Assembly (NCBI GenBank): GCA_028715415.1
Contig: JAQURX010000011.1
Coordinates: 1,320-65,319, forward strand
Direction of reading: 5' to 3'
Source: Candidatus Omnitrophota bacterium
Lineage (GTDB): Bacteria > Omnitrophota > Gorgyraeia > Gygaellales > Profunditerraquicolaceae
Length of the DNA stretch: 64,000 bases
The position numbers and the translations under genes are program-made. Under the pieces are notes generated by a model that was not told the DNA's origin, did no database searches, and saw only the letters and a list, made by a program, of their open reading frames with translations. Shown one piece after another: positions 16,355 through 50,077 of the stretch (positions are counted from its first letter, which is position 1; each line of letters opens with the position of its first letter).

Positions 16355-16804
16355 TCAATCCGGCTTGTAAACTGTAATCGGCTCATCTTTGGAACCGGCG
16401 TAAAAAACGGTAATTTCTACTGGTTCCTCTCCTTCGTTCTTCCCGTAATGCAAGGTATTAACTACTTCCACAATGCCTTCCCCAGCCCTTAGGTGCAAAG
16501 TCTTTCCGTCTTCGGTTTGAACCATTAACTTACCCTTCGTTAATACGCCAGCGTTAATAACCGGATGTTTATGCTTTACCAAGGTTCCCCCAGGAGGAAT
16601 AACAATGCGCAGAATGGTAATTTCCGGTTGTCCTTTAGGATAAGCAGGCAGAAGCGCACCATCCCAACTAACAGAGGATTTTGCCAACTGACAAACGCTG
16701 GGTTGTTGAATTGATTTATTACCTGTTAATCCGCCACAACCGGCAGTTAAACAAAGCAACACAACAGCAAATAAAAAACTAAGTTTACTAAGAATTTCTC
16801 TCAT
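16355..16804 (-). CDS. Cupin-domain lipoprotein
   Basis: Signal peptide with LTAGCGG lipobox; cupin-like HKHPVINAGVLTKGKL...HLRAGE. Confidence 0.45.
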   Translation of the reverse strand: MREILSKLSFLFAVVLLCLTAGCGGLTGNKSIQQPSVCQLAKSSVSWDGALLPAYPKGQPEITILRIVIPPGGTLVKHKHPVINAGVLTKGKLMVQTEDGKTLHLRAGEGIVEVVNTLHYGKNEGEEPVEITVFYAGSKDEPITVYKPD

Positions 16805-17015
16805 ATTTGTTTCTCTATATTCTACTTGCTTAATTGTTCCATCTTAATTCTGGAGACATCATACTTATCTTTTTGAATCAAGTATTGTGTACTCGGAATT
16901 CCCGGGAGGGTATGATGCGGGCATGCCCCCATACCTACTTTTCCGCCACCAAAAATTTACCCTTTTGTGCATTTGTTCAGCTCCAACTTACAGGATTAGA
17001 AAGAAAACTTCAGCT

Positions 17016-18380
17016 TTATTCATAATTAGGCTGAGTCTTACGCCATTCTCGCTTGCTTTGAATAAGCCCGCCTCCAAGAACTTCATCTATTAATCCTAAT
17101 AGCTGAGCATCATAAGGAGTCAAGAAATGATCGCCTCGACAAAGGCATTTACAAATCAAAACTATGTAATACCAAAAAATACGGGCCTGAGAGTAAAAAG
17201 GAGCAAGTAGTTTATTTCGTTCTTCTTCATTGCCAGCAGAACGAATTTTATCCGCCGTGTCTCTGTCAAATAAAGCATGTGCATGATTAACCATCATTCT
17301 TGTAGTCGCTTGGATATGGCTAGGACTCTTTATATCTTTCATAAAAGAAAAATCTTCTATAACTGTATCCAGCCAACTATCATTAATATTCTGATTCTTA
17401 TCGATAGCAAGACGTCTCGCCAATACTTCAAGTAACAGCCTAATGTCATTACGAGAAGCCTCCTCTAGTTCGGAACCCGTAGTGGACTCAGGGACTTGTG
17501 GAGGACTAGTTTGCTCCAAATCCATCTTTTTTATTACATCAATTAAGCTGCTTATTACTTTTGTAGGATCTGTTTCTTTTTCTGATTCTGCTTTCGAAAA
17601 TCTCTGTTCAATTCTTTCAATTTGTATCCACGATGCTAATAGTTCCAAGGCTCGTATCGCGATTTTTTGATCATTAGGACTAGAAAGTCTTGAATAAAGC
17701 GCCAAAGATAGACCAACAACATCTACTATTTGCTGTTGATCTTTAGGAATTAATTCACTAAATACTTTATCGTACTGTTCTACAAACTTTTTCCAACGCT
17801 CTCTGACTTTGCTAAAAGTAGGTTTCAAATCTAAATAAACCCAAATCAATCGCTCTTGCACACGGTTAGCAAGCTTTAATGAAAATACTGCGTTACTTCT
17901 TTCCAATCGGCGCGCGGCCTCTAGCGCTTTAGAAGGAGTAACGTCATCTATGTCAGAGTAACGAACATCATGATACAAAATGTTTGAGTGTGGAAAACCA
18001 ACGGAATAATCACCAAAAGCTAGAAAACTTGCTGCGGCACTAAAAGCTCTGTTAGTAGCGACAGTATAAATCTCAACCCCCTTCCCATCCTGATCGGGGC
18101 AATTTAATAAACTAAGCAGAGATTCCATTGTGCTTACGTTACCACCAGGACTATCAATCCCAACGGTAATCGGATCGGAGCTTTTCTGTTTCATTTGGAG
18201 AATAACAGGAGTCAATTCTTTCATTAAAGTGTCATCTATAGGTTTGTTTATATAAATCGCCCGCTCCCAATTTAAAGTCAGTCCAATTTTTCGTTTTGGT
18301 TCTTTAGCTACATTTGGAGTTTGACTGCTCTTTTTTGACTGAGTTTTTGTTTTTTTATTTGTTCGAATTTTATTGCTCAT
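17016..18380 (-). CDS. ClpP/S14-like serine protease domain protein with ~300-aa alpha-helical C-terminal extension
   Basis: GIDSPGGNVSTMESLL (ClpP INSPGG-like), catalytic Ser context NRAFSAAASFLAFGD (ClpP GQAASMGAF), His context ILYHDVRY (ClpP MIHQP); basic N-terminus; 454 aa. Confidence 0.5.
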   Translation of the reverse strand: MSNKIRTNKKTKTQSKKSSQTPNVAKEPKRKIGLTLNWERAIYINKPIDDTLMKELTPVILQMKQKSSDPITVGIDSPGGNVSTMESLLSLLNCPDQDGKGVEIYTVATNRAFSAAASFLAFGDYSVGFPHSNILYHDVRYSDIDDVTPSKALEAARRLERSNAVFSLKLANRVQERLIWVYLDLKPTFSKVRERWKKFVEQYDKVFSELIPKDQQQIVDVVGLSLALYSRLSSPNDQKIAIRALELLASWIQIERIEQRFSKAESEKETDPTKVISSLIDVIKKMDLEQTSPPQVPESTTGSELEEASRNDIRLLLEVLARRLAIDKNQNINDSWLDTVIEDFSFMKDIKSPSHIQATTRMMVNHAHALFDRDTADKIRSAGNEEERNKLLAPFYSQARIFWYYIVLICKCLCRGDHFLTPYDAQLLGLIDEVLGGGLIQSKREWRKTQPNYE

Positions 18381-18415
18381 TTATCTCACCCATCTATCTC
18401 TATCTAAACGCCACA

Positions 18416-19504
18416 TCAATTATCTTTCTCCTTAAACTTCAATCTCTTGCGTAAATAGGACCATGTTTGCCAATCTTCATGCTCATGAGCCAATCTCCCA
18501 GCAACAATTCCTGGAGCAATGTTCAATTTCTGAGCAAACACAGAAATAGCCTGATTAGAAAAATCACCTACTGAACAGAATTGCGCAAACTCATGTTTAG
18601 GAATTAAGGTACCTTGGGCAAATTCATCTGCTTCTCTTTCTTTTTCATTTGATTCAACGTTCTTTTTATCTTCGAATTCTATAAATTGTTCTTTTTTTCC
18701 ATGTTTAATAAGATGCCCTAGCTCATGAAAAAAAGTAAACCAGAAAATATCCTCATAACTTCCACGAAGACTTAGCTGAATCATGGCCTTGTTTGCAGTA
18801 AGCCATCGAGTCATTCCGTTAACGCATGTGTTTCTAAAATGCGGAACAAATGCAACTGCCACCCCACATGAAGCACAAATTTCAATTATTTTCTTAGGGA
18901 AGACTGACGCATCTTGTCTCGTAAGTTTCTTCAAATCATCTAAAGCTGCATTAAGCTTGTCTTTGTCAAATTCTTGAGTTTGTGTCTCTTGGGCGTCTAA
19001 TTCCCCGCAACGTAACCAAGTAGCGATACATTCATTAGAAATTCTTCCTTTATCTGACCTTCTAAAAGCGATTTCTTGAACTTTAGGTACAAAGGCTAAA
19101 GAACTAACGCCAAAAAAATTGAGTAACCTACTCACTTTTTCCTTAGGAGTACGCGCCGGTCCAATATATTTCCATTTAACTAATTCGTTAAAACAAGTGA
19201 ATTTTACTAATAAGGGGATTTCTTGTACTAATTTCTCTTCCATCTCTATTCTAGTAAGTGTTTCCTCATAGTTTCTCTGTAAGTTATTCCAAAAATTTGC
19301 TGACATACCAAATACTGAAGATAATTTTAACGCGGTATCAGTAGTAATCGAGGCTTTACCTTGAACAATCTCATTAATATGTTTTGGGGTCAATCCAGTG
19401 CGTTGCGCTAAATCAAACTGAGTCATATTAGATGCTTCAAGAGTGTCTTGCAGTGTCTTACCAGGATGAATTGCTATGGATGGGTGATAAATGTTTTCTC
19501 TCAT
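18416..19504 (-). CDS. HTH-XRE regulator fused to ImmA/IrrE-family (COG2856) zinc metallopeptidase; HigA-like antitoxin
   Basis: N-terminal HTH (TQFDLAQRTGLTPKHINEIVQGKASIT); C-terminal HEXXH (FFHELGHLIKHG); start overlaps stop of upstream HigB-like gene. Confidence 0.65.
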   Translation of the reverse strand: MRENIYHPSIAIHPGKTLQDTLEASNMTQFDLAQRTGLTPKHINEIVQGKASITTDTALKLSSVFGMSANFWNNLQRNYEETLTRIEMEEKLVQEIPLLVKFTCFNELVKWKYIGPARTPKEKVSRLLNFFGVSSLAFVPKVQEIAFRRSDKGRISNECIATWLRCGELDAQETQTQEFDKDKLNAALDDLKKLTRQDASVFPKKIIEICASCGVAVAFVPHFRNTCVNGMTRWLTANKAMIQLSLRGSYEDIFWFTFFHELGHLIKHGKKEQFIEFEDKKNVESNEKEREADEFAQGTLIPKHEFAQFCSVGDFSNQAISVFAQKLNIAPGIVAGRLAHEHEDWQTWSYLRKRLKFKEKDN

Positions 19505-19827
19505 GAATGCCCCCTATGATAATTCCTAACTCCATCAATTTGAATAGAAGTAATTGATTTTAAATCGGAAGGATCCCCATTTAATAACTCAATTAACATT
19601 CTGTAGGGATGCTTAATATCCACAGACCATAGGCTATTCAAATTCCCGGCAAGAGAATGCAATCTGGCTTGTGGTATTTTTGAAATGTCATAAAGATTTT
19701 CTGCAGAGATAAACTCGTTAATTCTTTGAATAATTTCTTTGGATTGTTGAGCGCCATATTCCCTAGTTAATAGTTTATGATCTTCAAATATCTTTTTCAT
19801 CTTACTATTCTTGAACTGAACATCCAT
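19501..19827 (-). CDS. HigB-like (RelE/ParE superfamily, PF05015-like) toxin
   Basis: 108 aa; pattern F.D..L...YG......I..RI..L.......DI...P...LH.L.GN....WSV.I....R.LIEL...D......I.I.DY matches plasmid-maintenance killer HigB family. Confidence 0.5.
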   Translation of the reverse strand: MDVQFKNSKMKKIFEDHKLLTREYGAQQSKEIIQRINEFISAENLYDISKIPQARLHSLAGNLNSLWSVDIKHPYRMLIELLNGDPSDLKSITSIQIDGVRNYHRGHS

Positions 19828-20004
19828 GGCGTGCCTTTCAGAGAAGCAGTTTAACTATAACACAGATATCGGAAATGTCAATAATTTTATTAACCTATTA
19901 GGTTAATAAAATAAATCACAACTTCATTCAAAATATATGAATTCTGGTGAAACATTATTTAATTATTATTTTTGAATTAAATTCCCCAAATAGCTATACC
20001 AATT

Positions 20005-20043
20005 AAAAAACCCTCAATACTTTTCAGCATTGAGGGCTTTTTG
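20005..20043. terminator. Bidirectional terminator-like hairpin (ccctcaat...attgaggg) with flanking A- and T-runs
   Basis: 8-bp stem at 20011-20037, A6 upstream and CTTTTT downstream. Confidence 0.4.
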
Positions 20044-20367
20044 TCCCCAATATCCGAAAAGATCGGATATTGTTATGGGTAATTTATCCCTTGCGTAAGC
20101 GCTCGAAAGTTCCTTAAATTTGCTACCTAAATTTATTAAAGGTATGCAAATTTTGCGGAACTTTCTTCGCACGCTGCGGGATTAATTTTCTACCCGCTAT
20201 TAAGCGGGAAAATTAACTCCCCCTATATGACACGTTTCGCAACCAAGATATTACTCTGGGAATTGAATTAAATACTATCAAATTACTATTTGAAGAAGCG
20301 AATTTAGGGGCAGTTTAACTTTATGCGATATAAGCTGACAGAAAGCTTCACGAGAACCCACGAACCT

Positions 20368-20733
20368 TTATTTCTTTTTAAGCAAGTTCTCAATCTGCTT
20401 CTGTTGCTCAATAATGATTTGTTGATTGGCGTTGTCAATTTTATTTTCTACAGCAGTAATTCTTCTTTCTAACTCAACCTTATCGTTTTTTGACTCAGAA
20501 AATTCTCTATACGTTAGATTATTAAAATGTAACTGGTCTATCACTATTGCCCCTACTGAAATCAGAGCGCTCACGACCATTACAACAATGACTATTACAA
20601 CTACATATAGTAAGGTATTTATGTCCCGAAACTTTTCGTCTGCTTTTTGTTCAAATGGTGATAATTTAACGGAAGCTTCGCTACTTTCGGGAAATTTAAC
20701 TTTTGGCTTTTCTGCTGGCATCTTAATAGACAC
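20368..20733 (-). CDS. Hypothetical single-pass membrane/coiled-coil protein
   Basis: 121 aa; central hydrophobic helix LLYVVVIVIVVMVVSALISVGAIVI, C-terminal coiled coil. Confidence 0.3.
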   Translation of the reverse strand: MSIKMPAEKPKVKFPESSEASVKLSPFEQKADEKFRDINTLLYVVVIVIVVMVVSALISVGAIVIDQLHFNNLTYREFSESKNDKVELERRITAVENKIDNANQQIIIEQQKQIENLLKKK

Positions 20734-20938
20734 CTTTCAAAACGTATACGCCATTCTCAGTTTCAACCTCAAAATCTCTGCCTATATATTGGATGAGGTC
20801 AATTCCGCCAAAAGATACCCCTTTTGAAAAACGAACTCCTGGACCGAATTGAACACCGCCTATTTTGATGGGATGGAGTGGCTCAATACTTCCATCGGGA
20901 TGAGATTGAAATAATTCCCAAAAGGTTATTCTGCTCAT
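20723..20938 (-). CDS. Hypothetical small protein
   Basis: 71-aa ORF directly upstream of and overlapping the 121-aa gene; no motif. Confidence 0.25.
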   Translation of the reverse strand: MSRITFWELFQSHPDGSIEPLHPIKIGGVQFGPGVRFSKGVSFGGIDLIQYIGRDFEVETENGVYVLKGVY

Positions 20939-21013
20939 ATCAATATTATCCTAATAATTATATTGCAATACTATTAAATTAAACAATTGAGAAATATTAT
21001 ACTTTGATATAAA

Positions 21014-22138
21014 ATGATAGTCAATAGATTAAATAAAAAGGTAATGAAAATGAATTATCAAGACAAACTTGACATTATTATCAAGACAATCAGCAAAGAA
21101 AGAGAAAAAGACTCAGACAATCCCTTTATTAGCCTTGACCTCGCCAAAAATAAAGAACTTTCCCTAATCCCTATTGACGAAATAGAAGGAATTATTGACT
21201 GCCTTCGTAAAGAAAAAGTCTTAATACTTCGCAACATAACATATCCTAAAGCTACCGATACTGAGAATGTTTCTCATTATGCCTTAACTCAACAACCTTG
21301 CTATAGTATAGAAATAGCAGAAAGTTTTTCCAACTGGCATTCTGCCTATATCCTCAAAAAATCAACTAAATTAGAAAATCTGAGCTTATTCAATCTTGAA
21401 AAAATTTGCTACCTTGTTCACGATATTGAAGAAAAATTTGAAATCAACCCAAATAAACAAATAATTATAAAATTAACCACAAATTCAATAGAACAATTTC
21501 CGCTTTTAAGAGAAAAATGCTCAATAAATTCTGATATTATCCCTTATAGAAAAGAAGCGTTGGAATATCTAAAAGACCACAGCATTATCTCTCATTACGA
21601 AATTAAACACTCTGAATATGCGGATAGCGAAATAGGCATATTACTAAACGTCAATGAGTTTAATAATTTTAAAAAAGAAATAACCAAAATATATGAAGAT
21701 AAACGTAAAAAACAAAATAAACAAATTCCTGCCCCTATGATACCTAAAACAGGCTCAGAAACACCAAAAGAATTTGCTAAAAAGCTTCAGCGTGAAATTG
21801 TCTATGAAATAAAATATACTGAAAACGGAGAAATTTTTCTTAATAATTTCCTATTTGCCAAAGTGCAGTTTAATGGAGAAAATGAGGCTGTTTTTAGTTA
21901 CCTTTTCAAACACCCGAATAAGAGAATAACAAAAGCAGAGTTCAAAGAAAAGGCTGGTTACTCTGTTGGAAAACCGCTTCATAAGATTGTTGAAAACTTA
22001 GGCTTTACAGGAAATCTCCGAAAAGCTTTCTTTAACGTATCCGAACAGGCTATACTCTTCAGAAATCCTCTCACAAAAAAAGAATTAGAAAAGCTCAATA
22101 TCCCTCAGTTAAAACTCAAGAAAAAAGCCATTTCTTAA
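21014..22138 (+). CDS. Hypothetical protein (no recognised domain), first gene of island operon
   Basis: 374-aa ORF, Lys/Glu-rich; no confident motif match. Confidence 0.35.
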   Translation: MIVNRLNKKVMKMNYQDKLDIIIKTISKEREKDSDNPFISLDLAKNKELSLIPIDEIEGIIDCLRKEKVLILRNITYPKATDTENVSHYALTQQPCYSIEIAESFSNWHSAYILKKSTKLENLSLFNLEKICYLVHDIEEKFEINPNKQIIIKLTTNSIEQFPLLREKCSINSDIIPYRKEALEYLKDHSIISHYEIKHSEYADSEIGILLNVNEFNNFKKEITKIYEDKRKKQNKQIPAPMIPKTGSETPKEFAKKLQREIVYEIKYTENGEIFLNNFLFAKVQFNGENEAVFSYLFKHPNKRITKAEFKEKAGYSVGKPLHKIVENLGFTGNLRKAFFNVSEQAILFRNPLTKKELEKLNIPQLKLKKKAIS

Positions 22139-22254
22139 TTTAAAAACTACTATTTAATATTCCGAAATTCGTTATAGTTAAAACATTCCCAACCTCTCCT
22201 AAACATACCTAAGTTACCCTAAATTAATAAGCCCTGTCGTATTCTTGATATACT

Positions 22255-22449
22255 TTGAGTGTGAATAATAAAACTGAATTAAAAACACTCATAGCTAACC
22301 ATATCAAAATTAAAACGGAAGAAGTACCTTCTGATTCCGAATTAACCGATTATGCAGATAATCTTGTATCCTTTGTTAAACTTCTAATTGAAGCGGATAA
22401 AAAAAATAATGAACGTAAAAATCTCCGAAATCCAGATATTACCAATTAA
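22255..22449 (+). CDS. Hypothetical small protein
   Basis: 64-aa ORF in operon context; overlaps start region of SpoVG-like gene. Confidence 0.2.
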   Translation: MSVNNKTELKTLIANHIKIKTEEVPSDSELTDYADNLVSFVKLLIEADKKNNERKNLRNPDITN

Positions 22450-22708
22450 GCCTTTAAACGGTTTAGTAGCTTTTGCCAGCTTCTTATTAAACGATAGCCT
22501 TTATCTTGGCTCAATCGCCATTATGACCCGCCCTCAAGGCGGTTATAGGCTTCTCTACCCTACCAAAAAAGTAGGCGCAAGAAATCTAAATATTTATCAT
22601 CCTATCAACAAGGAATTTGCAGAGTTGATTGAAAAAGAAGTAATAATGAAATTTGAAAAGGTAATGAATAAATATGATAGATACAATTGTTTTAACTCTA
22701 CCGCCTGA
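22409..22708 (+). CDS. SpoVG-like nucleic-acid-binding protein
   Basis: MNVKISEIQILPIKPLNGLVAFASFLLNDSLYLGSIAIMTRPQGGYRLLYPTKK...IYHPINKEFAELIEKEV parallels SpoVG (ITDVRI...ASITLD..FVVHDIRVI.G..GLFVAMPS...HPIN); start set at internal Met. Confidence 0.45.
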   Translation: MNVKISEIQILPIKPLNGLVAFASFLLNDSLYLGSIAIMTRPQGGYRLLYPTKKVGARNLNIYHPINKEFAELIEKEVIMKFEKVMNKYDRYNCFNSTA

Positions 22709-23825
22709 GCTTTTTGCTATTACAGAGCATAATAGATTTGACCCTTCTACAAAAGGCTTATTTGAGCGCCCTTACTATACGCTCGGCGGAAGGGGTAATT
22801 TCTCTTGTTTCCAGAATCCGACTAAGGAAGAATTTGAAAAAGGCATATACAAACCAAGACTTACCGCTACCAAACGTATGGGAAAAGGCGCATTCATAAC
22901 AACCTTAAAGATTGAATTTTCTATACCTAAGCTACTCTTCGGAAATAACTTTGACGAGGTTGAAGAACACCACTTTGACAAAATTGTTAACCTGTTACAA
23001 AAAAGACTGCAAGAAATGGGCGTATTAGTCTTTGAACACGTTTTAAAAAGTGCTCCTGTCTCAGCAGTGCATTATTCCAAAAATATAGCTCTTACAGACT
23101 ATTCAACACCTTCTGCTATTCTTAAGGAGCTATCAAAGATAAACCTAAACCAGAAACTTGATTTAAACCAAACGGACTTTAGAAATGAAGGGCATAGCTT
23201 GAAGTTTAGGGCTAACTATTTTGAAATATCTCTATACGACAAACTGAAAGACCTTAAAAAAGCCAAGACCAGCGAAAAAAGAGCCATTGAAAGAGATAAC
23301 GCCCTACAACTGACCCTATTTGACGATTTAAAGCCCAAGAAGCCTTTTGAAGTCTTGCGTATGGAAATAAGGTTAAACAATCGGGTAAAGATAAAGCAGG
23401 TCTTTAAAACGCTAAATATATCCTGTGAGATAATCTTCTCTTCTCTATTCAAAAAAGACATCTCTCAGAAAATCCTGCTCTCATACTTGAATGAAATTAA
23501 AAACGGTTATTCCCTGCTTGCCTATAAACCCAAAACTATGAAGGATTTTATAATTGATTTTAGAATGCAAAACCCCAAAGTAAAAATAAGAAAAATGCTT
23601 CAGGTCTTAGGGCTAAAAATGGCTTGCAATGATATGGGAATACGTGAATTTAGAAAATCAACAGAGTTTTACGGAGACTACAGCTGGTATAGATTAAAAA
23701 AGGATTTAACCGCTTATAAATATCCTAAGAGGCAATTATCAGTAATAAAACCAATTGAAAAGGCTTTGCTTGATTTTACTCCTCTAAGATTAGCTGACTT
23801 TGAAGAAAAGAAACAAACTACTTGA
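22674..23825 (+). CDS. Hypothetical protein, possibly replication-initiation (Rep_trans-like) protein of a mobile element
   Basis: 383 aa; N-terminus MIDTIVLTLPPELF reminiscent of rolling-circle Rep_trans proteins; assignment weak. Confidence 0.25.
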   Translation: MIDTIVLTLPPELFAITEHNRFDPSTKGLFERPYYTLGGRGNFSCFQNPTKEEFEKGIYKPRLTATKRMGKGAFITTLKIEFSIPKLLFGNNFDEVEEHHFDKIVNLLQKRLQEMGVLVFEHVLKSAPVSAVHYSKNIALTDYSTPSAILKELSKINLNQKLDLNQTDFRNEGHSLKFRANYFEISLYDKLKDLKKAKTSEKRAIERDNALQLTLFDDLKPKKPFEVLRMEIRLNNRVKIKQVFKTLNISCEIIFSSLFKKDISQKILLSYLNEIKNGYSLLAYKPKTMKDFIIDFRMQNPKVKIRKMLQVLGLKMACNDMGIREFRKSTEFYGDYSWYRLKKDLTAYKYPKRQLSVIKPIEKALLDFTPLRLADFEEKKQTT

Positions 23826-23847
23826 CTTATAAACATTATGTTATAGG

Positions 23848-24051
23848 ATGTTATATATGGAACTAATAAAGAGACTGGAAACTTACCGATTAGAAAATAG
23901 ACTCACCCAACAAGAACTTGCCAAGAAGCTCGGAGTTGCTTTTGCTACAGTTAATCGCTGGTTTAACGACAGGACAAAACCTAACCACATTCAGACTTAT
24001 CAAATTGAGAAGCTACTAAAAGAAAGGTCTAAAAATGCCAAAGGAAAATAA
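23848..24051 (+). CDS. Small HTH (XRE-family) transcriptional regulator, possible controller (C) protein of RM module
   Basis: LTQQELAKKLGVAFATVNRWFNDRTKP helix-turn-helix; 67 aa; immediately upstream of methyltransferase gene, overlapping its start. Confidence 0.55.
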   Translation: MLYMELIKRLETYRLENRLTQQELAKKLGVAFATVNRWFNDRTKPNHIQTYQIEKLLKERSKNAKGK

Positions 24052-25840
24052 AAAAGAAATCCAAGAATCAATCTTTATGCGTAATATTCAAAGAGGCATT
24101 GATAAAGGCATTATCTCCCTCTCCCCTGACCAATCAAAAATAACTTACCATTGCTCACGAGAATATACAACTGGCTTTAAGAACCCAGAAGAAAAAGTAA
24201 GGGCTTCTTACTTTGCTGAACTTATTTTAGATTATGATTACCCGCAAAAAAGAATAGATTTTGAGGTAACTGTTCCCAGAAGAACCCCAGAAGACAGGGC
24301 TGATATTGTTGTTTATGAAGACGATGAATTAAAGAAGCCTTATTTAGTAGTTGAGTGTAAGAAGGACGGTATAACCGAAGCAGAGCGTAAACAGGCGATT
24401 GAGCAAGCTTTTGGCAATGCCAATAGCCTAAGAGGACAACTTGCTTCTGTTGTAGCAGGAACAACAAAGACCGCTTTTGATGTTGCAGGATTTAAGCCAA
24501 AGGAACGAGAAAAAAATGTTATTTCGGATATACCTAAAAAATACGGCAGAACTCCGAAATATAAATTTGTAAAAGGCGAGCCTGAAAAGGAGTTAAAGAC
24601 AGTTTCCAAAGATGAACTTATCAGCGCATTGCAGAAATGCCACGATACAGTCTGGCAGGGCGGAAGGCTTGCGCCGACAACAGCCTTTGATGAAGTATCA
24701 AAACTTCTCTTCTGTAAACTAAAGGATGAAAAGGACACTCCTAAAAATGAAAATTATCAATTCCAAATAGGAACACACGAAAGTGCCGAAGAAATATCTA
24801 ACCGAATAGGTAAAATATACCAAAAAGCCAAAAAACAAGACGAAGAAGTATTTAAAGAGGATATACGGCTTGAGCCGAAAGTTATTTATAACGTAGTTGA
24901 GCATTTACAGGGCTTAGCTATAAATAAGATTGATTTAGACACCAAAGGAATCGCCTTTGAGAAGTTTATGGAAGACTTCTTTAAGGGTAAAATGGGACAA
25001 TTTTTTACTCCGAGAGAGATAATTAGATTCTGTATTAAAATGCTGAACCCAGAAAAAGATGAATCGGTCTTAGACCCTGCCTGCGGAAGCGGTGGCTTTC
25101 TGCTTAATGCAATGGATAAAATTAGGGAATTTGCCGAACAGCACTATGACGAACAAGAAGCATATAACCATTGGCACGAATTTGCCAAGAATAACCTTTA
25201 CGGTATAGAAATAAATGACCAAATTGCACGAGTTTGTAAAATGAATATGATAATCCACGATGACGGACATACTAACGTTATTAGCACTGACTCGTTACGT
25301 GATTTTGAAGAAATAAACGATATGCACCCAAAGTTTAACAAAGATAAATTTGATATTATTCTTACAAACCCCCCTTTTGGCGCAGTGGTTAAATCAACCG
25401 AAAAAGACTACTTAGATAAATATAGTCTTGGAAAGGATAAAGATAATCAGAAAACCGAAATAATGTTTATTGAGCGTTGCATTGATTTTATTAAGCCCAA
25501 GACTGGAAGGATTGCCATAGTTTTACCTGACGGAATATTGACTAACTCTTCTTTGCAATATGTAAGAGACTTTATTATGGAGCGGTGCCAGATTTTAGCG
25601 ATTGTGTCGCTTCCGCAATTTGCCTTTACCCATTACGGAGCTGGTGTTAAGTCCTCTCTTGTATTCCTACGCAGGAAAAGCGAAAAGGAAAAAGCGGAAA
25701 ATTACCCTATCTTTATGGCTATTTCCGAACATATTGGCTATGACGCAACAGGCAGAACTGACCCAATAAACGAATTAGAGACGATTTACGAAGAGTATCA
25801 GAAATTCCTAAAAAATCCGAGTGGATATAAAGGAGATTAA
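24035..25840 (+). CDS. HsdR_N-like PD-(D/E)xK nuclease domain fused to N6-adenine DNA methyltransferase (Type IIB/IIG- or type I HsdM-like RM subunit)
   Basis: N-terminal RADIVVYEDDELKKPYLVVECKKDG (HSDR_N-type D...ExK); methyltransferase motif I DPACGSGGFLL and motif IV ILTNPPFG; 601 aa. Confidence 0.7.
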   Translation: MPKENKKEIQESIFMRNIQRGIDKGIISLSPDQSKITYHCSREYTTGFKNPEEKVRASYFAELILDYDYPQKRIDFEVTVPRRTPEDRADIVVYEDDELKKPYLVVECKKDGITEAERKQAIEQAFGNANSLRGQLASVVAGTTKTAFDVAGFKPKEREKNVISDIPKKYGRTPKYKFVKGEPEKELKTVSKDELISALQKCHDTVWQGGRLAPTTAFDEVSKLLFCKLKDEKDTPKNENYQFQIGTHESAEEISNRIGKIYQKAKKQDEEVFKEDIRLEPKVIYNVVEHLQGLAINKIDLDTKGIAFEKFMEDFFKGKMGQFFTPREIIRFCIKMLNPEKDESVLDPACGSGGFLLNAMDKIREFAEQHYDEQEAYNHWHEFAKNNLYGIEINDQIARVCKMNMIIHDDGHTNVISTDSLRDFEEINDMHPKFNKDKFDIILTNPPFGAVVKSTEKDYLDKYSLGKDKDNQKTEIMFIERCIDFIKPKTGRIAIVLPDGILTNSSLQYVRDFIMERCQILAIVSLPQFAFTHYGAGVKSSLVFLRRKSEKEKAENYPIFMAISEHIGYDATGRTDPINELETIYEEYQKFLKNPSGYKGD

Positions 25841-25843
25841 ACA

Positions 25844-26728
25844 ATGGCTATATTTAACGTTACCAATGATACCTTAAAGAAATTAACCATAAAAAGGTTT
25901 AAAAACGAAAAAGAACTGCAAACTCTCTTTGAAAAGAATACTGAGACTATTTTTGGAGTTAGGCTTCTTGCTTCTGAATTTGAGACAACTCACGGTGGTA
26001 GAATTGATACGTTAGGCATAGATGAAGATAATGCGCCCGTAATCATTGAATACAAAGAAAATGAAAAAGACAATATCATTAATCAAGGTCTCTTCTATCT
26101 TGATTGGCTTATTGACCATAAAGGAGACTTTGAGATGTTGGTATATAACAAATGCGGAGAAAAGATAAAAATCAACTGGGATGAACCAAGACTAATTTTA
26201 GTAGCACAAAATTTTAACGATTACGATAAATATGCGGTAAATAGGATTGCTGAAAATATAGAGTTATGGAAATATACAATCTATGAAAATGACGTCCTAC
26301 TTGTAGAGCGCATTAACCTACCTAAAGAAGATAAACAAAAACAGAAAGTTAAATCTAAAAAGATAGTATTTGAAGAATATTCTTATGATGACCATTTGAA
26401 AGGAAAAAACAGTAATATAAAAAATCTTGTTTTAAAACTTAAGGAACAAATTCTTAGTTTAGACTCACATATACAAGAAAAGGTAAAAAAACACTATATC
26501 GCTTTTGCGCTTGAAAGGAATTTCTGCGAATTTGTTGTTCAAGTCAACTCTGTAAGAGTTCATCTTGATATTGAGAAAGATAGACTAAAAGACCCTAAAA
26601 ATATCGTAGAAGACCGCTCGCAAACAGGTCATTGGGCTACAGGGAATAGCGTAATAAAAGTAACGAACGAAAATGAAATCCCTTATCTTATGGGATTGGT
26701 AAAACAAAGTTACGAAAATAAACTGTAA
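25844..26728 (+). CDS. NucS/DUF91-like PD-(D/E)xK nuclease-domain protein embedded in RM operon
   Basis: GGRIDTLGIDEDNAPVIIEYKENEKDNIINQGLFYLDWL resembles NucS/DUF4263 catalytic core (GRIDLLa.D..g.lvvIElK); 294 aa. Confidence 0.5.
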   Translation: MAIFNVTNDTLKKLTIKRFKNEKELQTLFEKNTETIFGVRLLASEFETTHGGRIDTLGIDEDNAPVIIEYKENEKDNIINQGLFYLDWLIDHKGDFEMLVYNKCGEKIKINWDEPRLILVAQNFNDYDKYAVNRIAENIELWKYTIYENDVLLVERINLPKEDKQKQKVKSKKIVFEEYSYDDHLKGKNSNIKNLVLKLKEQILSLDSHIQEKVKKHYIAFALERNFCEFVVQVNSVRVHLDIEKDRLKDPKNIVEDRSQTGHWATGNSVIKVTNENEIPYLMGLVKQSYENKL

Positions 26729-26736
26729 GGGAAAAT

Positions 26737-28101
26737 ATGGAATGTTTTAAGATTAATTCTAATGAGGTTGAAGGACGACTTGACTGTTTCTACTATAAAC
26801 CAGAATTTGTTGAATTAGAGAAACGAATTAAGCGCTTAACTTCTAAAACACTGAGAGATTATATTGTAAATATCGCTGGCGGTGCGACACCAGATAAAGA
26901 TGAAAGCGAAAAATATTATTCAGATGAAACCAATGGTATACCATTTTTAAGAGTTCAAAACCTATCCGAAGAAGGTTTGAATTTTGACAATATTAAATTT
27001 ATAAATACCGAAACTCATAATGGTATGCTTAAAAGAAGCCAAGTTAAAGAAGGTTATCTTCTGACGAAGATTACAGGCGTTGGCAGAATGGCAGTATCTT
27101 CTGTTGCACCAAAAGGATTTGAAGGAAACATAAACCAACATATAGTCGCAATCAAAACAGAGAGCTATAAAACAAGCGAAGTATTAGCAAATTTTCTTAA
27201 TTCAGATATAGGCGAACGGTTAGCCTTCAGACGTTCAACTGGTGGCACGAGACCCGCCTTAGATTACGAAGCGTTAAAAACTATTCCTATTGTATTTGAA
27301 CCAAAAATTGTCTCAATTATGCAGTCTGCCTTTGAGCAAAAAAAACAAAAAGAACAAGAAGCGGATAAATTATTAAATTCAATGTATGGATTTGTGCTTG
27401 ATGAACTTGGTATAAAGTTACCAGAGCTGAAAGATAAGAAATGTTACTCCGTAGATTCTGGCGATATTAAAAGCCGTCTTGACCCATATTATCACAAACC
27501 ATCTTTTTTAAATAGATACAAGGCTATCAAAGCGTCTAAATATACTGTTTATGATTTCAGAGAGTTGTTGCTTGAAGTAAAAAACGGCGTTGAAATTAGG
27601 ACATACTCCGAAAAAGGTAATAGATATATGCGGGTAACGGATTTAGGAGAGACAGGAATAGTTGACCATAATCCCCGATATGTATTTGCAAAGGAAATCC
27701 CTGAAAGAATCAAGCTAACAACTAAAGATTTTCTTATATCTCGGTCTGGCTCTTTAGGCTTGGTATCTGTAGTAACAGAGAATATGCTCAATTATATTTT
27801 AAGCTCTCACATATTTAAAATAACCCTTGATTTCGCAAAGCTAAATCCTTTTTACTTACAGGCTTTTCTCAGAAGCAATATTGGACAATTTCAATTCTTC
27901 CATAATAATAACGGCGGTATTATTCCAGAAATAAACCAAGAGGCTTTAAAGTCAATAAAGATTGTAGTCCCACCTTTAGATATTCAACAGAAAATTGCTA
28001 ACGAGGTTGAAAGGCGTATGGATGAAGCAGGAAAATTGAAAAGCGAAGCCAATAACTTAATTGATAAGGCAAAAAGAGAAGTAGAAACGTTAATCTTATG
28101 A
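26737..28101 (+). CDS. hsdS: Restriction-modification specificity subunit (HsdS-like, two target-recognition domains)
   Basis: 454 aa with two repeated TRD halves (LDCFYYKPEF... and LDPYYHKPSF...) and conserved central/terminal coiled-coil spacers. Confidence 0.7.
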   Translation: MECFKINSNEVEGRLDCFYYKPEFVELEKRIKRLTSKTLRDYIVNIAGGATPDKDESEKYYSDETNGIPFLRVQNLSEEGLNFDNIKFINTETHNGMLKRSQVKEGYLLTKITGVGRMAVSSVAPKGFEGNINQHIVAIKTESYKTSEVLANFLNSDIGERLAFRRSTGGTRPALDYEALKTIPIVFEPKIVSIMQSAFEQKKQKEQEADKLLNSMYGFVLDELGIKLPELKDKKCYSVDSGDIKSRLDPYYHKPSFLNRYKAIKASKYTVYDFRELLLEVKNGVEIRTYSEKGNRYMRVTDLGETGIVDHNPRYVFAKEIPERIKLTTKDFLISRSGSLGLVSVVTENMLNYILSSHIFKITLDFAKLNPFYLQAFLRSNIGQFQFFHNNNGGIIPEINQEALKSIKIVVPPLDIQQKIANEVERRMDEAGKLKSEANNLIDKAKREVETLIL

Positions 28102-29591
28102 ATAAAGCCGTAATATTAGCAAGAGTCTCAACACTTAAACAGGAAGAAGAAGGTCTTTCTCTTGATAATCAGCTCAATACGTTAAGAAGCTATGCAAAAC
28201 AGAATGACTTTGACGTTATTAAGGAATTTAGGTTTAGCGAAAGTGCAGATTCAAAGATAAGAAAAAAATTCTGTGAAATGATTGAATTTGTCAAAAATGA
28301 CACAAATATTAAAGTTATTATTGCCTACCGAGTTGACCGTATTACCCGCAATTACAGAGACGCAGTCTTAATTGACGATTTAAGAACAAACTTTAATAAA
28401 GAAATCCATTTCGTTTATGACCGCTTAGTTATCGCCCCTAAGACTGTTGGAAGGGATATTACAGATTGGGATACAAAAGTTTATTTGGCGAAGCAATTTC
28501 TTAACCGCCTCAAGGAAGACGCTGTTGTTTCTATCAAACACAAGCTAAACAATGGCGAATATCCAAGTATGGCTCCTTATGGTTATACAAATATCGTAAA
28601 TGAAGACCGTAAGAAATGGATAGCGCCAGATTCCCTTGAATCTAAAGTTGTAATAAAAATATATGAGTGGTATGCAACAGGCGCTTTTTCTATGGATTTA
28701 ATCAGAAAAAAGCTAAAAGAGGAATTTTGTTTAGATTTTCATAAAGGCACGGTTGACTCTATCCTTAAAAATCCCTTTTATTACGGAGAAATGCTTCACT
28801 GTGGCAAGCTTTACCCACACAAATACAAAACAATCATTTCTAAGGAATTATTTGATAAAGCTCAAGAAGTTAAAGCGGGATTTAATAAAAAATCTTTTAA
28901 ATTTGTGGGTCTTCCATATCTTTACAGGGGTTTGATAAAATGCGCTAAATGCGGTTGCAGGATTACTCCTGAGAAGAAAAAAGGGAAATATGTATATTAC
29001 CACTGCACGCAATACTACGGCAAACACTCTGATAAATGGATACGGGAAGAAGATTTAACAAGGCAATTTGCCGACCTTATGAATAAAATACATCTTCCCG
29101 ATGATATTGTTGAATCTATTAGTAAAACGCTCAGAGAATCTCACGAAGACAAGGTAAATTATTATAACAACTTAAATTCAGAGCTTCAAACCGAGTATGG
29201 TAAATACGAAAAGCGAATTGAAAAGATGTATGAAGACTATCTTGACGGACGTATTACTGAAGATATGTATAACAAATTAAGACAGGATTATAGAATAAAA
29301 CAAGAAGAAATTCAGGATAAGCTAAACAGTCTTCAAAAATCCGATGAAGAGTATTACGAAACGGCTTCTTATATACTTAAAGTCGCAAATAAAGCCCCAC
29401 AGTTATTTGAAAGTTCTGAACCAGAGATAAAAAGGCAACTTTTGAAATTAACACTTCAGAACTGCGAACTAAAAGACGCAACTCTATGCCCCACAATAAG
29501 AAGACCCTTCAGCATATTCGCCGAAGGGTCTTCTCGTCAGAATTGGCTCCCCCTCGTGGACTCGAACCACGGACCTGGTGGTTACACTTGA
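28098..29591 (+). CDS. Large serine recombinase (resolvase N-domain + recombinase domain + zinc ribbon)
   Basis: N-terminal VILARVSTLKQEEEGLSLDNQ (catalytic Ser), IAYRVDRITRN; zinc ribbon CAKCGCRITPEKKKGKYVYYHC; ATG overlaps hsdS stop; last ~16 codons run into tRNA gene. Confidence 0.75.
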   Translation: MNKAVILARVSTLKQEEEGLSLDNQLNTLRSYAKQNDFDVIKEFRFSESADSKIRKKFCEMIEFVKNDTNIKVIIAYRVDRITRNYRDAVLIDDLRTNFNKEIHFVYDRLVIAPKTVGRDITDWDTKVYLAKQFLNRLKEDAVVSIKHKLNNGEYPSMAPYGYTNIVNEDRKKWIAPDSLESKVVIKIYEWYATGAFSMDLIRKKLKEEFCLDFHKGTVDSILKNPFYYGEMLHCGKLYPHKYKTIISKELFDKAQEVKAGFNKKSFKFVGLPYLYRGLIKCAKCGCRITPEKKKGKYVYYHCTQYYGKHSDKWIREEDLTRQFADLMNKIHLPDDIVESISKTLRESHEDKVNYYNNLNSELQTEYGKYEKRIEKMYEDYLDGRITEDMYNKLRQDYRIKQEEIQDKLNSLQKSDEEYYETASYILKVANKAPQLFESSEPEIKRQLLKLTLQNCELKDATLCPTIRRPFSIFAEGSSRQNWLPLVDSNHGPGGYT

Positions 29592-29839
29592 CCCGAAATT
29601 ACTTTCGGAAGCGGACTATATCTTTGCCACGGCTTGCGCCAGAGGCAGCAGGTACATAGTCTCTGAACCTTCCTCGCATTTCTGCGAGGCTCGGCTGCTG
29701 ATTACCCTTGCTTGCGCATTAGGGCTTCCAGCAATTCTCCTGCAGTTTCAACTACGGTTTCCCGTAGAAGCTGCGCTTAATCGCCCGCCTATGGCGGGAC
29801 TCGCACAGCCACTCGCTCTACCTACTGAGCTAAGGGGGA
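29544..29839 (-). tRNA. tRNA-Asn(GUU) gene interrupted by a group I intron in the anticodon loop (exons 29805-29839 and 29544-29584)
   Basis: Exons give UCCCCCU-UA-GCUC-AGUAGGUA-GAGC...CUGU|UAA...AGGUC-CGUGG-UUCGAGU-CCACG-AGGGGGA-G-CCA, closely matching E. coli tRNA-Asn architecture (anticodon loop CUGUUAA, T-loop UUCGAGU, discriminator G, CCA encoded). Confidence 0.7.
29585..29804 (-). ncRNA. Group I self-splicing intron (~220 nt) within tRNA-Asn
   Basis: Conserved elements P (AAUGCGCAAGCAAGGG), Q (AAUCAGCAGCC), R (GGUUCAGAGACUA), S (AAGAUAUAGUCC); P1 with U35.G wobble against GCGCAGC guide; P2 CUACGG-GAAA-CCGUAG; terminal omega-G before 3' exon. Confidence 0.65.
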
Positions 29840-49174: not shown

Positions 49175-50077
49175 TCATTTATTTCCGCCTCTACCACCGC
49201 CCCTATGCGCTCCACCACCTCTTGGCCCTCCACCTGGAGCACCTTGATGCATAGCACCGCTATCCCTCATATCGCGCTTAAGTTCTCGTTGGTCATTTTT
49301 AAGCTCACGCGTATCTCTCTTGAGTTCTTTAAAATCCCCTTGCCTAAGGTCATTTTTAATTTCTCTTTTATCTTGCTGAATCTCTCTTCGTTCAGCCTGA
49401 ACCTCTCTTTTATCCCTTAAATCAGGGCTTGCACCCGGACCGCCTTGTGGCCCCGGCTGATTTTCCCAATTAGTTCCCGGACCGCCCTTTGGGCCTGGAG
49501 GATTATTGTCTCTGTCTTTCCATGGCCTTCTGTCAGGGCCTGCTCCTGGACCTCCCTGAGGCCCCGGCTGATTTTCCCAATTAGTTCCCGGACCGCCCTT
49601 TGGGCCTGGAGGATTATTGTCTCTATCCCTTCTCGGAGGCAAATATCCTTCTTGACGGCCTTCTTTAAAATCCGATCTAATTTCCTGGCGAGCATCTTGT
49701 AAACCCTTTAAATCCTGTTGTTTTTGCTGAACATTCTCTTGATGCGTTGTTTTAAGCTGTTCTCTTATTTCTCTTGCTTTTTCAAAATCACCTGATTGTA
49801 TAGCCTGATGCATCTGGTCACGCAAATTCTTTTCTTCTTGTTTTGCTTCCTGAGCATTACTTTTAACTCCTTCTTTTAAACTTTGAATCTGTTCCTTATC
49901 AGATTTTAAATCTTGTTTCCATTCTTGCTTACCTGAAACTTCAGAACTCGCTACAGTTGCAGATGTTTCCTCCTGCGCAAATACAGTTGTCGCGCAGAAA
50001 ACAAAACTAAAAACACTTGAAACAACCAACGCCTTCTTTACCATCTTCACCTTTTCCTCCTCTCTTGTATTTATCAT
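49175..50077 (-). CDS. Secreted low-complexity repeat protein (charged coiled-coil flanks, Gly/Pro-rich 37-aa tandem repeat)
   Basis: Signal peptide; repeat DRDNNPPGPKGGPGTNWENQPGPQGGPGA(G/S)PD x2; Gln/Glu/Lys/Arg-rich flanks; C-terminal Gly/Arg tail. Confidence 0.5.
   Translation of the reverse strand: MINTREEEKVKMVKKALVVSSVFSFVFCATTVFAQEETSATVASSEVSGKQEWKQDLKSDKEQIQSLKEGVKSNAQEAKQEEKNLRDQMHQAIQSGDFEKAREIREQLKTTHQENVQQKQQDLKGLQDARQEIRSDFKEGRQEGYLPPRRDRDNNPPGPKGGPGTNWENQPGPQGGPGAGPDRRPWKDRDNNPPGPKGGPGTNWENQPGPQGGPGASPDLRDKREVQAERREIQQDKREIKNDLRQGDFKELKRDTRELKNDQRELKRDMRDSGAMHQGAPGGGPRGGGAHRGGGRGGNK
49449..49670. repeat. Two tandem copies of a 111-bp in-frame coding repeat
   Basis: ggccccggctgattttcccaattagttcccggaccgccctttgggcctggaggattattgtctct at 49449 and again at 49560, near identical. 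Confidence 0.7.

Follow-up and report, generated by a model that had tools for sequence, protein, structure and literature searches.

Introns in tRNA genes are known at several positions, among them 34/35 in tRNA-Leu(UAA) of cyanobacteria and plastids, 33/34 in tRNA-fMet, and 36/37 in tRNA-Ile of Azoarcus and tRNA-Arg of Agrobacterium (Nakagawa et al. 2026, mSystems; PMC13011429), and the number of intron-interrupted tRNA types in bacteria was raised from 4 to 21 by Williams (2020, bioRxiv 10.1101/2020.01.27.920355), to whom Nakagawa et al. credit the class Asn.4Ug. Screening 95 complete Patescibacteria genomes, Nakagawa et al. reported 15 tRNA-Asn introns at position 35/36; a set of 4,934 complete genomes yielded 28 introns at this position, 25 of them classed as IA, with occurrences outside Patescibacteria in Cyanobacteriota, Nitrospirota, Bacillota_A, Bipolaricaulota and Pseudomonadota. 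For tRNA-Asn introns from Patescibacteria, precise self-splicing was obtained in vitro, with an omega-G mutant as control. The part of their Table S5 considered here holds tRNA-Asn 35/36 introns from Nitrospirota and Bipolaricaulota and a single Omnitrophota entry, a tRNA-fMet intron at 33/34. For integrases of the serine family, tRNA genes or transfer-messenger RNA (tmRNA) genes were the targets of 14 of 297 islands, versus 44.5% for tyrosine integrases (Mageeney et al. 2020; PMC7192596), and the same 2020 TIGER survey flagged tRNA targeting by serine integrases as unreported and in need of proof. In 64,000 nucleotides (nt) of DNA from a Candidatus Omnitrophota bacterium (contig JAQURX010000011.1, positions 1,320 to 65,319; hereafter the window), two independent mobile elements, a predicted self-splicing group I intron and a serine-recombinase island, very probably occupy one and the same tRNA-Asn(GUU) gene; the anatomy, homology, covariation, boundaries and recurrence behind this reading are shown by the sequences.

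The split gene, by direct reading, is composed as follows.

29805 to 29839, minus strand: tRNA-Asn 5' exon, positions 1-35, 35 nt, ending C32 U33 G34 U35 (...GGCUGU; ...GAGUGGCUGU)
29585 to 29804, minus strand: group I intron without an open reading frame (ORF), 220 nt, starting GCGAG and ending CAAGUG, with omega-G at 29585
29544 to 29584, minus strand: tRNA-Asn 3' exon, positions 36-76, 41 nt, UAACCACC...GGGGGAGCCA (also given as UAACCACC...GAGGGGGAGCCA)

The 3' exon contributes U36, A37 and A38, the 3' strand of the anticodon stem, the variable loop, the T arm and the 3' strand of the acceptor stem, and both G73 and CCA are encoded in it. Joining the exons gives a 76-mer with the loop CUGUUAA that ARAGORN calls tRNA-Asn(gtt). 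A preliminary description made from the sequence alone had placed a tRNA-Asn(GUU) split by a group I intron at 29544-29839, with some 220 nt between U35 and U36; direct reading, Rfam and ARAGORN bear this out to the base, the interruption being 220 nt (29804-29585) and the junction 35|36 in each of the 17 complete intron-bearing syntenic alleles described below. That the segment is instead a tmRNA or another structured RNA, the alternative raised in that description, has a negligible probability: neither ARAGORN nor Rfam reported a tmRNA at the locus, the exons join to a canonical tRNA-Asn, and no point in favour of this alternative was found.

Comparison with related genomes was based on the ABC-F gene that neighbours the tRNA-Asn gene. 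An exact-protein lookup with it returned no record; as a query it yielded 80 syntenic loci (68-81% protein identity), whose titles are mostly Candidatus Omnitrophota or Omnitrophica and 51 of which hold a complete tRNA-Asn gene; the window thereby falls into the same phylum. In 34 of the 80 the gene is uninterrupted, lies just 3' of ABC-F and has the loop CTGTTAA with anticodon GTT; in 17 both exons are present 189-568 nt apart and split exactly at 35|36; and three further loci are intron-bearing and interrupted by a contig end. The 5' exon of the window is 91-97% identical to the 5' halves of the syntenic genes. The gene is thus tRNA-Asn(GUU) with an intron between positions 35 and 36, because the uninterrupted syntenic alleles read CTGTTAA and U35 forms the wobble pair of helix P1.

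A tRNA-Thr(UGU) gene with an intron two bases upstream, at 33/34, would be the obvious competing identity, and ARAGORN in its intron mode (-i) does call the precursor tRNA-Thr(tgt) with intron (34,220), that is, at 33/34; moreover, under the shifted boundaries, too, the 5' splice site is preceded by U and the intron ends in G. We consider this highly improbable, since all 34 uninterrupted syntenic alleles read CTGTTAA (GTT), the U.G wobble in P1 is made by U35 and not by U33, which pairs with A, the U1-A72 pair and G73 are those of E. coli tRNA-Asn, and the same two-base Thr(UGU) miscall has been documented and then disproved for homologues by sequencing of their spliced products (PMC13011429). 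In default mode ARAGORN called no tRNA at the window locus or at loci L081 and L082. Default annotation thus misses this tRNA-Asn or miscalls it as tRNA-Thr, which affects tRNA-based completeness scores of metagenome-assembled genomes (MAGs).

The alleles also differ in the anticodon stem, which is GUGG/CCAC in all intron-bearing copies except that of L062 (CUGG/CCAG) and fits the pairing in P1, whereas most intron-less alleles have AGAGA/UCUCC or GGAGA/UCUCU; either selection for P1 or co-conversion in the course of homing could underlie this contrast. In L031, L061, L064 and L067 the tRNA-Asn gene has the inverse orientation with respect to ABC-F and lies on the locus minus strand, and more than 12 MAG contigs break off at or within it, so that the site seems to be a hotspot of rearrangement and assembly breaks.

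The intron has the group I core at the level of both model and motif. Rfam Intron_gpI (RF00028, curated gathering score 50) matches 29592-29814 on the minus strand over the full model, 1-253, with 68.8 bits (E = 2.4e-15), and the core elements AAUCAGCAGCC, GGUUCAGAGACUA and AAGAUAUAGUCC, which the preliminary description had quoted as P/Q/R/S, are present; the U.G pair in P1, the GAAA-capped P2, the terminal omega-G, G73 and the encoded CCA that it listed are likewise all present. The helices are the following.

29803-29810 with 29769-29776, minus strand: P1, with U35.G at 29805
29762-29767 with 29752-29757, minus strand: P2, CUACGG-GAAA-CCGUAG, GAAA loop
29739-29743 with 29648-29652, minus strand: P3
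29728-29731 with 29698-29701, minus strand: P4
29722-29725 with 29704-29707, minus strand: P5
29693-29695 with 29667-29669, minus strand: P6
29686-29689 with 29672-29675, minus strand: P6a
29657-29661 with 29614-29618, minus strand: P7, GACUA with UAGUC
29644-29647 with 29625-29628, minus strand: P8
29603-29608 with 29593-29598, minus strand: P9
29609-29613 with 29585-29589, minus strand: P9.0-like pairing

The strands of P1 are GGCUGUGC and GCGCAGCU, the exon-intron sequence GGCUGU|GC pairing with GCGCAGCU. When 16 Omnitrophota tRNA-Asn precursors were aligned and folded with RNAalifold, the unguided fold recovered P1, P2, P3, P4, P5, P6/P6a, P8, P9 and the P9.0-like pairing, to which P7 was then added as a pseudoknot. 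Standard pairs occupy 98.3% of cells, and 27 of 54 intron pairs have changed on both sides. Not one of 500 shuffles matched any of five measures, and sliding the 3' partners by 1-3 columns left just 3-7 compensatory pairs. Compensatory changes back P3, P4, P5, P6 and P8, and two intron-side pairs of P1 covary (GC, CG, AU); P7, J8/7, the U35.G pair (16/16) and the terminal G at the intron's 3' end are the same in every copy. Judged from the alignment, this is the conservation pattern expected of a functional ribozyme and not of a relic, and the precursor in the window should be self-splicing.

A decayed, non-splicing relic in a tRNA-Asn pseudogene, with the function supplied by another copy of the gene, would account for an intron that has no endonuclease ORF in its 220 nt and no counterpart of the P7.1/P7.2-like block of its published IA1 relatives. 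This seems very unlikely to us: compensatory changes keep every core helix in 16 diverged copies, both exons are unbroken and share 91-97% identity with uninterrupted alleles, and the compact form is common to all 16 aligned Omnitrophota copies, which have only 4 nt between P7 and P3'; the compactness is therefore a conserved architecture and not decay. We accordingly retain a functional intron, with splicing activity predicted from sequence. In the proposed reaction, exogenous guanosine would attack after U35, held in the P1 U.G wobble, and the terminal G (29585) would then enter the guanosine site of P7, ligating the exons to the loop CUGUUAA.

The tRNA-Asn gene had been presented as a possibly unusual intron host; this view is outdated, the class having been catalogued in 2020 (Williams) and its self-splicing shown in vitro in 2026 (PMC13011429). 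In an alignment of three Omnitrophota introns with three published IA1 tRNA-Asn introns from Nitrospirota and Bipolaricaulota, taken from the part of Table S5 of PMC13011429 considered here, the window intron runs collinear to the published ones, with a mean column identity of 68%, exons included. It shares with class Asn.4Ug the host tRNA, the 35/36 site, the U-1 and omega-G boundaries, the ARAGORN miscall as Thr(UGU) 33/34, and a P1-P2 motif, GCAGCUUC-stem-GAAA-stem-GUUGAAA, common to it and the aligned members. It differs in its host phylum, Omnitrophota not being listed for tRNA-Asn 35/36 introns in the considered part of PMC13011429, and in its compactness. The classical IC3 tRNA introns resemble it in being small (about 200-250 nt), self-splicing, placed in the anticodon loop and free of a P7.1/P7.2 extension, in the compact IC3 architecture; they lie in other tRNAs and at other positions, and the window intron aligns with the tRNA-Asn lineage, with no visible alignment to the IC3 sequences in the considered part of Table S5 (PMC13011429).

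Longer variants at the same site carry an ORF.

L047:6243-6851, minus strand: long intron variant with ORF
L051:3725-4368, minus strand: long intron variant with ORF
L081:11440-12092, minus strand: long intron variant with ORF

These introns (533-570 nt) encode, on the tRNA strand, a protein of 108-110 amino acids (aa) with a CxxC..HH..CxxCH motif, which shares 53% identity (E = 2e-33) with the ORF in a Patescibacteria tRNA-Asn intron, classed as HNH in PMC13011429; we assign it to HNH because of this motif and this homology. Since same-site relatives have an endonuclease ORF, spread by homing fits and accounts for the presence and absence of the intron among close relatives. The window intron is, by alignment, an endonuclease-less, compact addition to the known tRNA-Asn 35/36 lineage of Patescibacteria, Nitrospirota and Bipolaricaulota. 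Two points count against this account of the intron: the block of about 41 nt between P7 and P3' that the aligned IA1 members possess is missing in the three Omnitrophota copies of the second alignment, and the splicing of published members is therefore not automatically transferable to the Omnitrophota introns; and a Pfam search of the intron ORF of L047, L051 and L081 gave nothing at E <= 0.01. The recently described class now extends to Omnitrophota, in a compact form without the P7.1/P7.2-like block. The value of the intron itself is modest, and the recombinase side may matter more, yet the natural series at one syntenic locus, with 34 uninterrupted alleles, 17 intron-bearing ones and one complete allele (L047) with an endonuclease-like ORF, is useful for studies of intron gain, loss and homing.

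The second element comes up to the tRNA gene from its 3' side. Its recombinase gene and boundaries are as follows.

20225 to 29546, no strand: integrated island, 9.3 kb, boundaries from cross-island comparison
20217 to 20224, no strand: proposed attL core, the left 8-bp repeat CTCCCCCT, with host DNA on its left and the island-arm motif ATAT-GAC-ACG-TTTCGCAAC on its right
29547 to 29554, no strand: proposed attR core, the tRNA-proximal 8-bp repeat CTCCCCCT, antisense of tRNA positions 66-73
28098 to 29591, plus strand: large serine recombinase, 497 aa (Pfam Resolvase PF00239, Recombinase PF07508, Zn_ribbon_recom PF13408)

The recombinase matches PHROG 95 'integrase' (E = 2.4e-64) and the catalytic domain of TP901-1 integrase (3bvp, E = 4.5e-8); its matches to the NCBIfam XisF and Ccr models fall beneath their cut-offs. 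Its N-terminal ARVST motif, MNKAVILARVSTLKQ, reads R-V-S-T-x-x-Q and is kept in all listed homologues, and serine 11 is by analogy the likely catalytic nucleophile. The protein is identical to that of an NCBI Omnitrophica MAG record, and a homologue (L081) is 88% identical. As the preliminary description had noted, the ORF enters the 3' half of the tRNA: in antisense orientation it covers the complete 3' exon and continues for 7 nt into the intron, where its stop codon lies, and its last 15 codons (WLPLVDSNHGPGGYT) are the antisense of the 3' exon. In the same frame, intron-less alleles have the stop TAA as the antisense of U35-U36-A37; in the window the intron splits this triplet, and the ORF gains two codons inside the intron (29585-29591; ...GGYT*).

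The arrangement recurs. Within the 80 syntenic loci, distant recombinases of the same type (23-37% identity) converge on tRNA-Asn in eight, and in six the ORF enters the tRNA; these six and the window use three different reading frames, so that the overlap reflects position and is no conserved feature of the protein. Overlap of a recombinase ORF with tRNA-Asn is seen in the window and at L008, L014, L038, L044, L051, L053, L086 and L088, the gene being called tRNA-Asn(gtt) in the last two; in L081 and L082 the recombinase abuts the intron and overlaps tRNA-Asn by sequence, with no tRNA-Asn call from ARAGORN; in L089 it overlaps an intron-bearing tRNA, by sequence also a tRNA-Asn, that ARAGORN miscalls as Tyr; and in L085, which represents nine endings of the form '...IQSxLSYH', it overlaps tRNA-Gln(ctg). 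We read the C-termini in the 120 best homologue clusters (clustered at 90% identity, from about 1,559 homologues), which are 51-100% identical to the window protein and whose named sources include Omnitrophica, Chloroflexota, Dehalococcoidia and Patescibacteria. In about 94 of these 120 the C-terminus is a peptide antisense to a tRNA 3' end: W-[LR]-x-x-x-D-S-N... is the ending of 48, a minimum of 6 others are a G-S-N variant or depart from the strict pattern (P0002: LLPREDSN), and 40 end 1-2 residues past W-[LR]-x. The W derives from CCA, the L from G71-A72-G73, which with U1-A72 and G73 fits tRNA-Asn, and D-S-N from GTTCGAGTC of the T-loop. A stop exactly 12 residues past W is seen in 25 cases; there the antisense of positions 35-37 gives TAA (for U35-U36-A37). 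These C-termini suggest a multi-phylum clade of serine integrases that targets tRNA-Asn or tRNA-Gln.

The boundaries of the island emerge from comparison with its relatives. Its GC content is 34.3%, versus 37.4% for the whole window, and its genes from 21014 to 29591 are opposite in strand to their neighbours, the GC skew flipping across them. The sister island of L081, with a homologous recombinase, adjoins an intron-bearing tRNA-Asn gene in a different chromosomal neighbourhood; DNA identity across the two islands is 82-87%, and CTCCCC(C) is the exact point at which similarity sets in at the far end, DNA left of the core being unrelated. The left ends read ...AAAATTAA|CTCCCCCT|ATATGACACGTTTCGCAACC in the window and ...GTCAATTA|CTCCCC|GTATATGACGCATTTCGTAACC in L081, and the signature of core, N4-6 and GAY-RCR-TTYCKYAAC is found again at the left ends of the islands of L089 (L089:699) and L086 (L086:4822), both in Patescibacteria-type contexts. 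The repeats that flank the four islands are 6-9 bp long, with conserved island arms and host arms that are not conserved, and the minimal core shared by all four is CTCCCC, the antisense of GGGGAG at tRNA positions 68-73. In L083 and L084 the 3' end of the recombinase gene, the core and the arm are contiguous, a native junction of attP type. A natively flanked tRNA-Asn 3' end, of attB type, reads ...GTCCACGAGGGGGAG-TTAATTTTCCCGC...; of the 51 syntenic loci in which tRNA-Asn is complete, most lack a recombinase beside it. The island side of the core carries CCA and the host side gives the tRNA up to G73, so the tRNA is complete. The proposal that the tRNA is the target of the island is supported by these boundaries, with the refinement that the site would be the extreme 3' end, positions 66-73, and not the 3' half generally.

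Three kinds of observation weigh on the other side of this conclusion. Two further copies of the 8-mer CTCCCCCT stand on the minus strand of the window, which leaves the repeat by itself as weak evidence; composition predicts 0.02 copies of the 8-mer at 20217-20224 (AGGGGGAG) per 10 kb, and 0.38 per 10 kb strand were observed in the fetched loci, tRNA-Asn copies counted. The repeat is not significant alone, and the boundary therefore rests on the cross-island comparison. Exact-match scans of metagenome and viral collections found neither the empty attB nor the excised attP junction (...CAGAATTGGCTCCCCCTATATGACACG...). In the Chloroflexota-labelled L087 (L087:5600-5745) what the recombinase overlaps is a sequence resembling just the 3' half of tRNA-Asn, starting with the anticodon loop, with no tRNA 5' half within 700 nt and no Rfam intron match.

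The overlap might accordingly be an accident of ORF calling, the island having been placed by other means or the recombinase being a cargo invertase or resolvase. The frame of the tRNA-antisense tail does vary between loci and so is not a conserved protein segment, the scans just described found no excised form, and the four loci with an inverted tRNA-Asn gene agree with such a view. We nevertheless regard it as unlikely, given the full domain set of a large serine recombinase with its phage integrase match (PHROG 95), the position of the recombinase at the tRNA-proximal edge in every examined island and in at least two phyla, the conserved arm motif at the far edge with short direct repeats, and the native attP-type junction in L083 and L084. 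The island encodes no other recombinase, neither a tyrosine integrase or Phage_integrase domain nor any further type being found among its proteins with Pfam and PHROGs. Intron presence and island presence showed no association, islands adjoining split and unsplit alleles alike.

We therefore hold to integration at the tRNA. In the mechanism that we propose, the island's own large serine recombinase, whose activity is predicted from sequence, would insert the 9.3-kb element at the last bases of the tRNA gene, with the crossover probably within GGGGAG, positions 68-73; the host would keep the tRNA up to G73 and the element would supply CCA and a downstream hairpin, so that the tRNA gene stays intact. 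Before integration the attachment site would lie inside the 3' end of the recombinase gene, which is why the integrated ORF would cross the junction and run antisense through the 3' exon to stop in the intron. The hairpin lies as follows.

29506 to 29537, minus strand: hairpin GAAGACCCTTC ... GAAGGGTCTTC, about 7 nt 3' of the tRNA and within the recombinase coding sequence, by direct reading

A compensatory change keeps its pairing in L083, it is not present in the Patescibacteria-type members, and a strict terminator scan did not call it; it may be an element-supplied terminator for the tRNA. A long att repeat in the style of tyrosine integrases, a displaced tRNA 3' half, was sought and nothing above 9 nt was found in the window, so that this model was dropped. 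A conserved translated C-terminal tail of the excised form (WLPLYDTFRN...) was considered as well; L083 and L084 are conserved for only about 25 nt past the core before a stop, and this stretch may rather be a DNA-binding attP arm, which fits it better than a functional peptide does. At the putative left end of the L053 island the distal 8-mer has no arm motif, and the reconstructed tail is unrelated.

Compared with described large serine integrases (TP901-1, phiC31, Bxb1, A118, CcrAB, XisF), the enzyme has the same domain set, N-terminal catalytic-serine motif, short common core between attachment sites and gene position at the edge of the element; it differs in its probable target, the 3' end of a tRNA gene, and in having its proposed attP within the recombinase coding sequence, so that integration would alter the C-terminal tail. 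Tyrosine-integrase islands in tRNA genes share the 3'-end site, restoration of the gene by the element, direct repeats and an integrase beside the tRNA (PMC7192596), but belong to another enzyme family, and here the repeat is only 6-9 bp, at positions of about 66-73. The phiRSM integrase is another serine-family recombinase that acts as a site-specific integrase (cited in PMC7192596). In contrast to the enzyme described here it is small and resolvase-like, lacks the zinc-ribbon and Recombinase domains, and comes from a filamentous phage and not from a restriction-modification (R-M) island. Its target is reportedly a tRNA-Ser gene.

Serine integrases have rarely been linked to tRNA targets, and here a whole clade appears to use tRNA genes; a search of a limited literature library returned no later account of a serine-integrase clade that targets tRNA-Asn. 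We lean slightly towards the view that this is the first well-supported tRNA-using serine-integrase family: a clade of at least about 100 clusters at 90% identity, with attP inside its own 3' end, attB in the last 6-9 bases of tRNA-Asn, a tRNA-Gln subclade, and islands of 7-11 kb with a fixed core and interchangeable R-M or defence cargo. The antisense-tRNA signature of the C-terminal peptide could serve to mine attB/attP pairs for genome engineering and, if the reading is correct, a nearly universal target means that such enzymes could be broad-host-range integration tools.

Core and cargo of the window island were compared with Pfam, PHROGs, NCBIfam and PADLOC.

21014 to 24051, plus strand: four conserved island core genes
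21014 to 22138, plus strand: core protein without assigned family, 374 aa
22388 to 22708, plus strand: core SpoVG-like protein
22674 to 23825, plus strand: core protein without assigned family, 383 aa
23848 to 24051, plus strand: core helix-turn-helix (HTH) protein, 67 aa
24035 to 25840, plus strand: type I-like N6-adenine DNA methyltransferase, 601 aa (Pfam N6_Mtase, HSDR_N_2; PADLOC MTase_I, E = 8e-141)
25844 to 26728, plus strand: DUF5655/NucS-like protein of candidate defence family PDC-S18, 294 aa (PADLOC PDC-S18, E = 2e-97)
26737 to 28101, plus strand: type I specificity (HsdS-like) subunit, 454 aa (Pfam Methylase_S; PADLOC Specificity_I, E = 3e-39)
20368 to 20938, minus strand: two small ORFs, 121 aa and 71 aa, without a family match

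The order of the core genes and the architecture of the island recur in L081, L083, L088 and L089, and none of the four collections gave a match for the two core proteins of about 375 aa. The methyltransferase has a MAD2-like match in NCBIfam that is under the curated cut-off. Neither the PDC-S18 gene nor the two small ORFs are found in the sister island of L081.

On the host side of the left boundary, the flank 16355-20216 encodes a HigB-like toxin (19501-19827), an HTH/M78 protein (18416-19504), a 454-aa ClpP-like protein (17016-18380) and a cupin-domain protein (16355-16804). The 80 syntenic loci contain no homologues of these flank genes, and the stretch may be further variable DNA.

Other traces of insertion were seen around tRNA-Asn genes of related loci. 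A second copy of the tRNA 3' end lies about 100-190 nt past tRNA-Asn in L034:8127-8240, L040:12386-12500 and L063:7218-7420; it measures 12-14 nt in L034 and L063, is shorter and imperfect in L040, and in L034 is followed by the host flank TCTTT... These copies look like att-site remnants of lost elements. At L083:2452-18956 a tandem pair of islands belongs to this family, the recombinase of the first joining an attP-type junction with no tRNA, and at L086:6824 a second recombinase 3' end with core (ACGCCTCTCGTCCAGCTTGGCTCCCCC) lies inside the island and may be a remnant of an earlier element. An endonuclease ORF of the GIY-YIG type (Pfam E = 2e-15) stands immediately 5' of the intron-bearing tRNA-Asn gene in L082 (3439-3760, minus strand). 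It is framed by a duplication of 17 nt from the tRNA 5' end (TCCCCTGTAGCTCAGTT) and seems to be a mobile insertion of a third type at tRNA-Asn. Beside the tRNA-Asn locus of the sister genome, L081:12250-12304 matches the Rfam nhaA-I riboswitch (52.1 bits).

Elsewhere in the window, a 111-nt tandem repeat of 1.8 copies (93% identity) occupies 49422-49624, a locally GC-rich patch of skewed composition, and five related segments of about 56 nt (63-73% identity) lie in neighbouring minus-strand ORFs between 35055 and 41053 and probably represent a motif conserved among paralogous genes.

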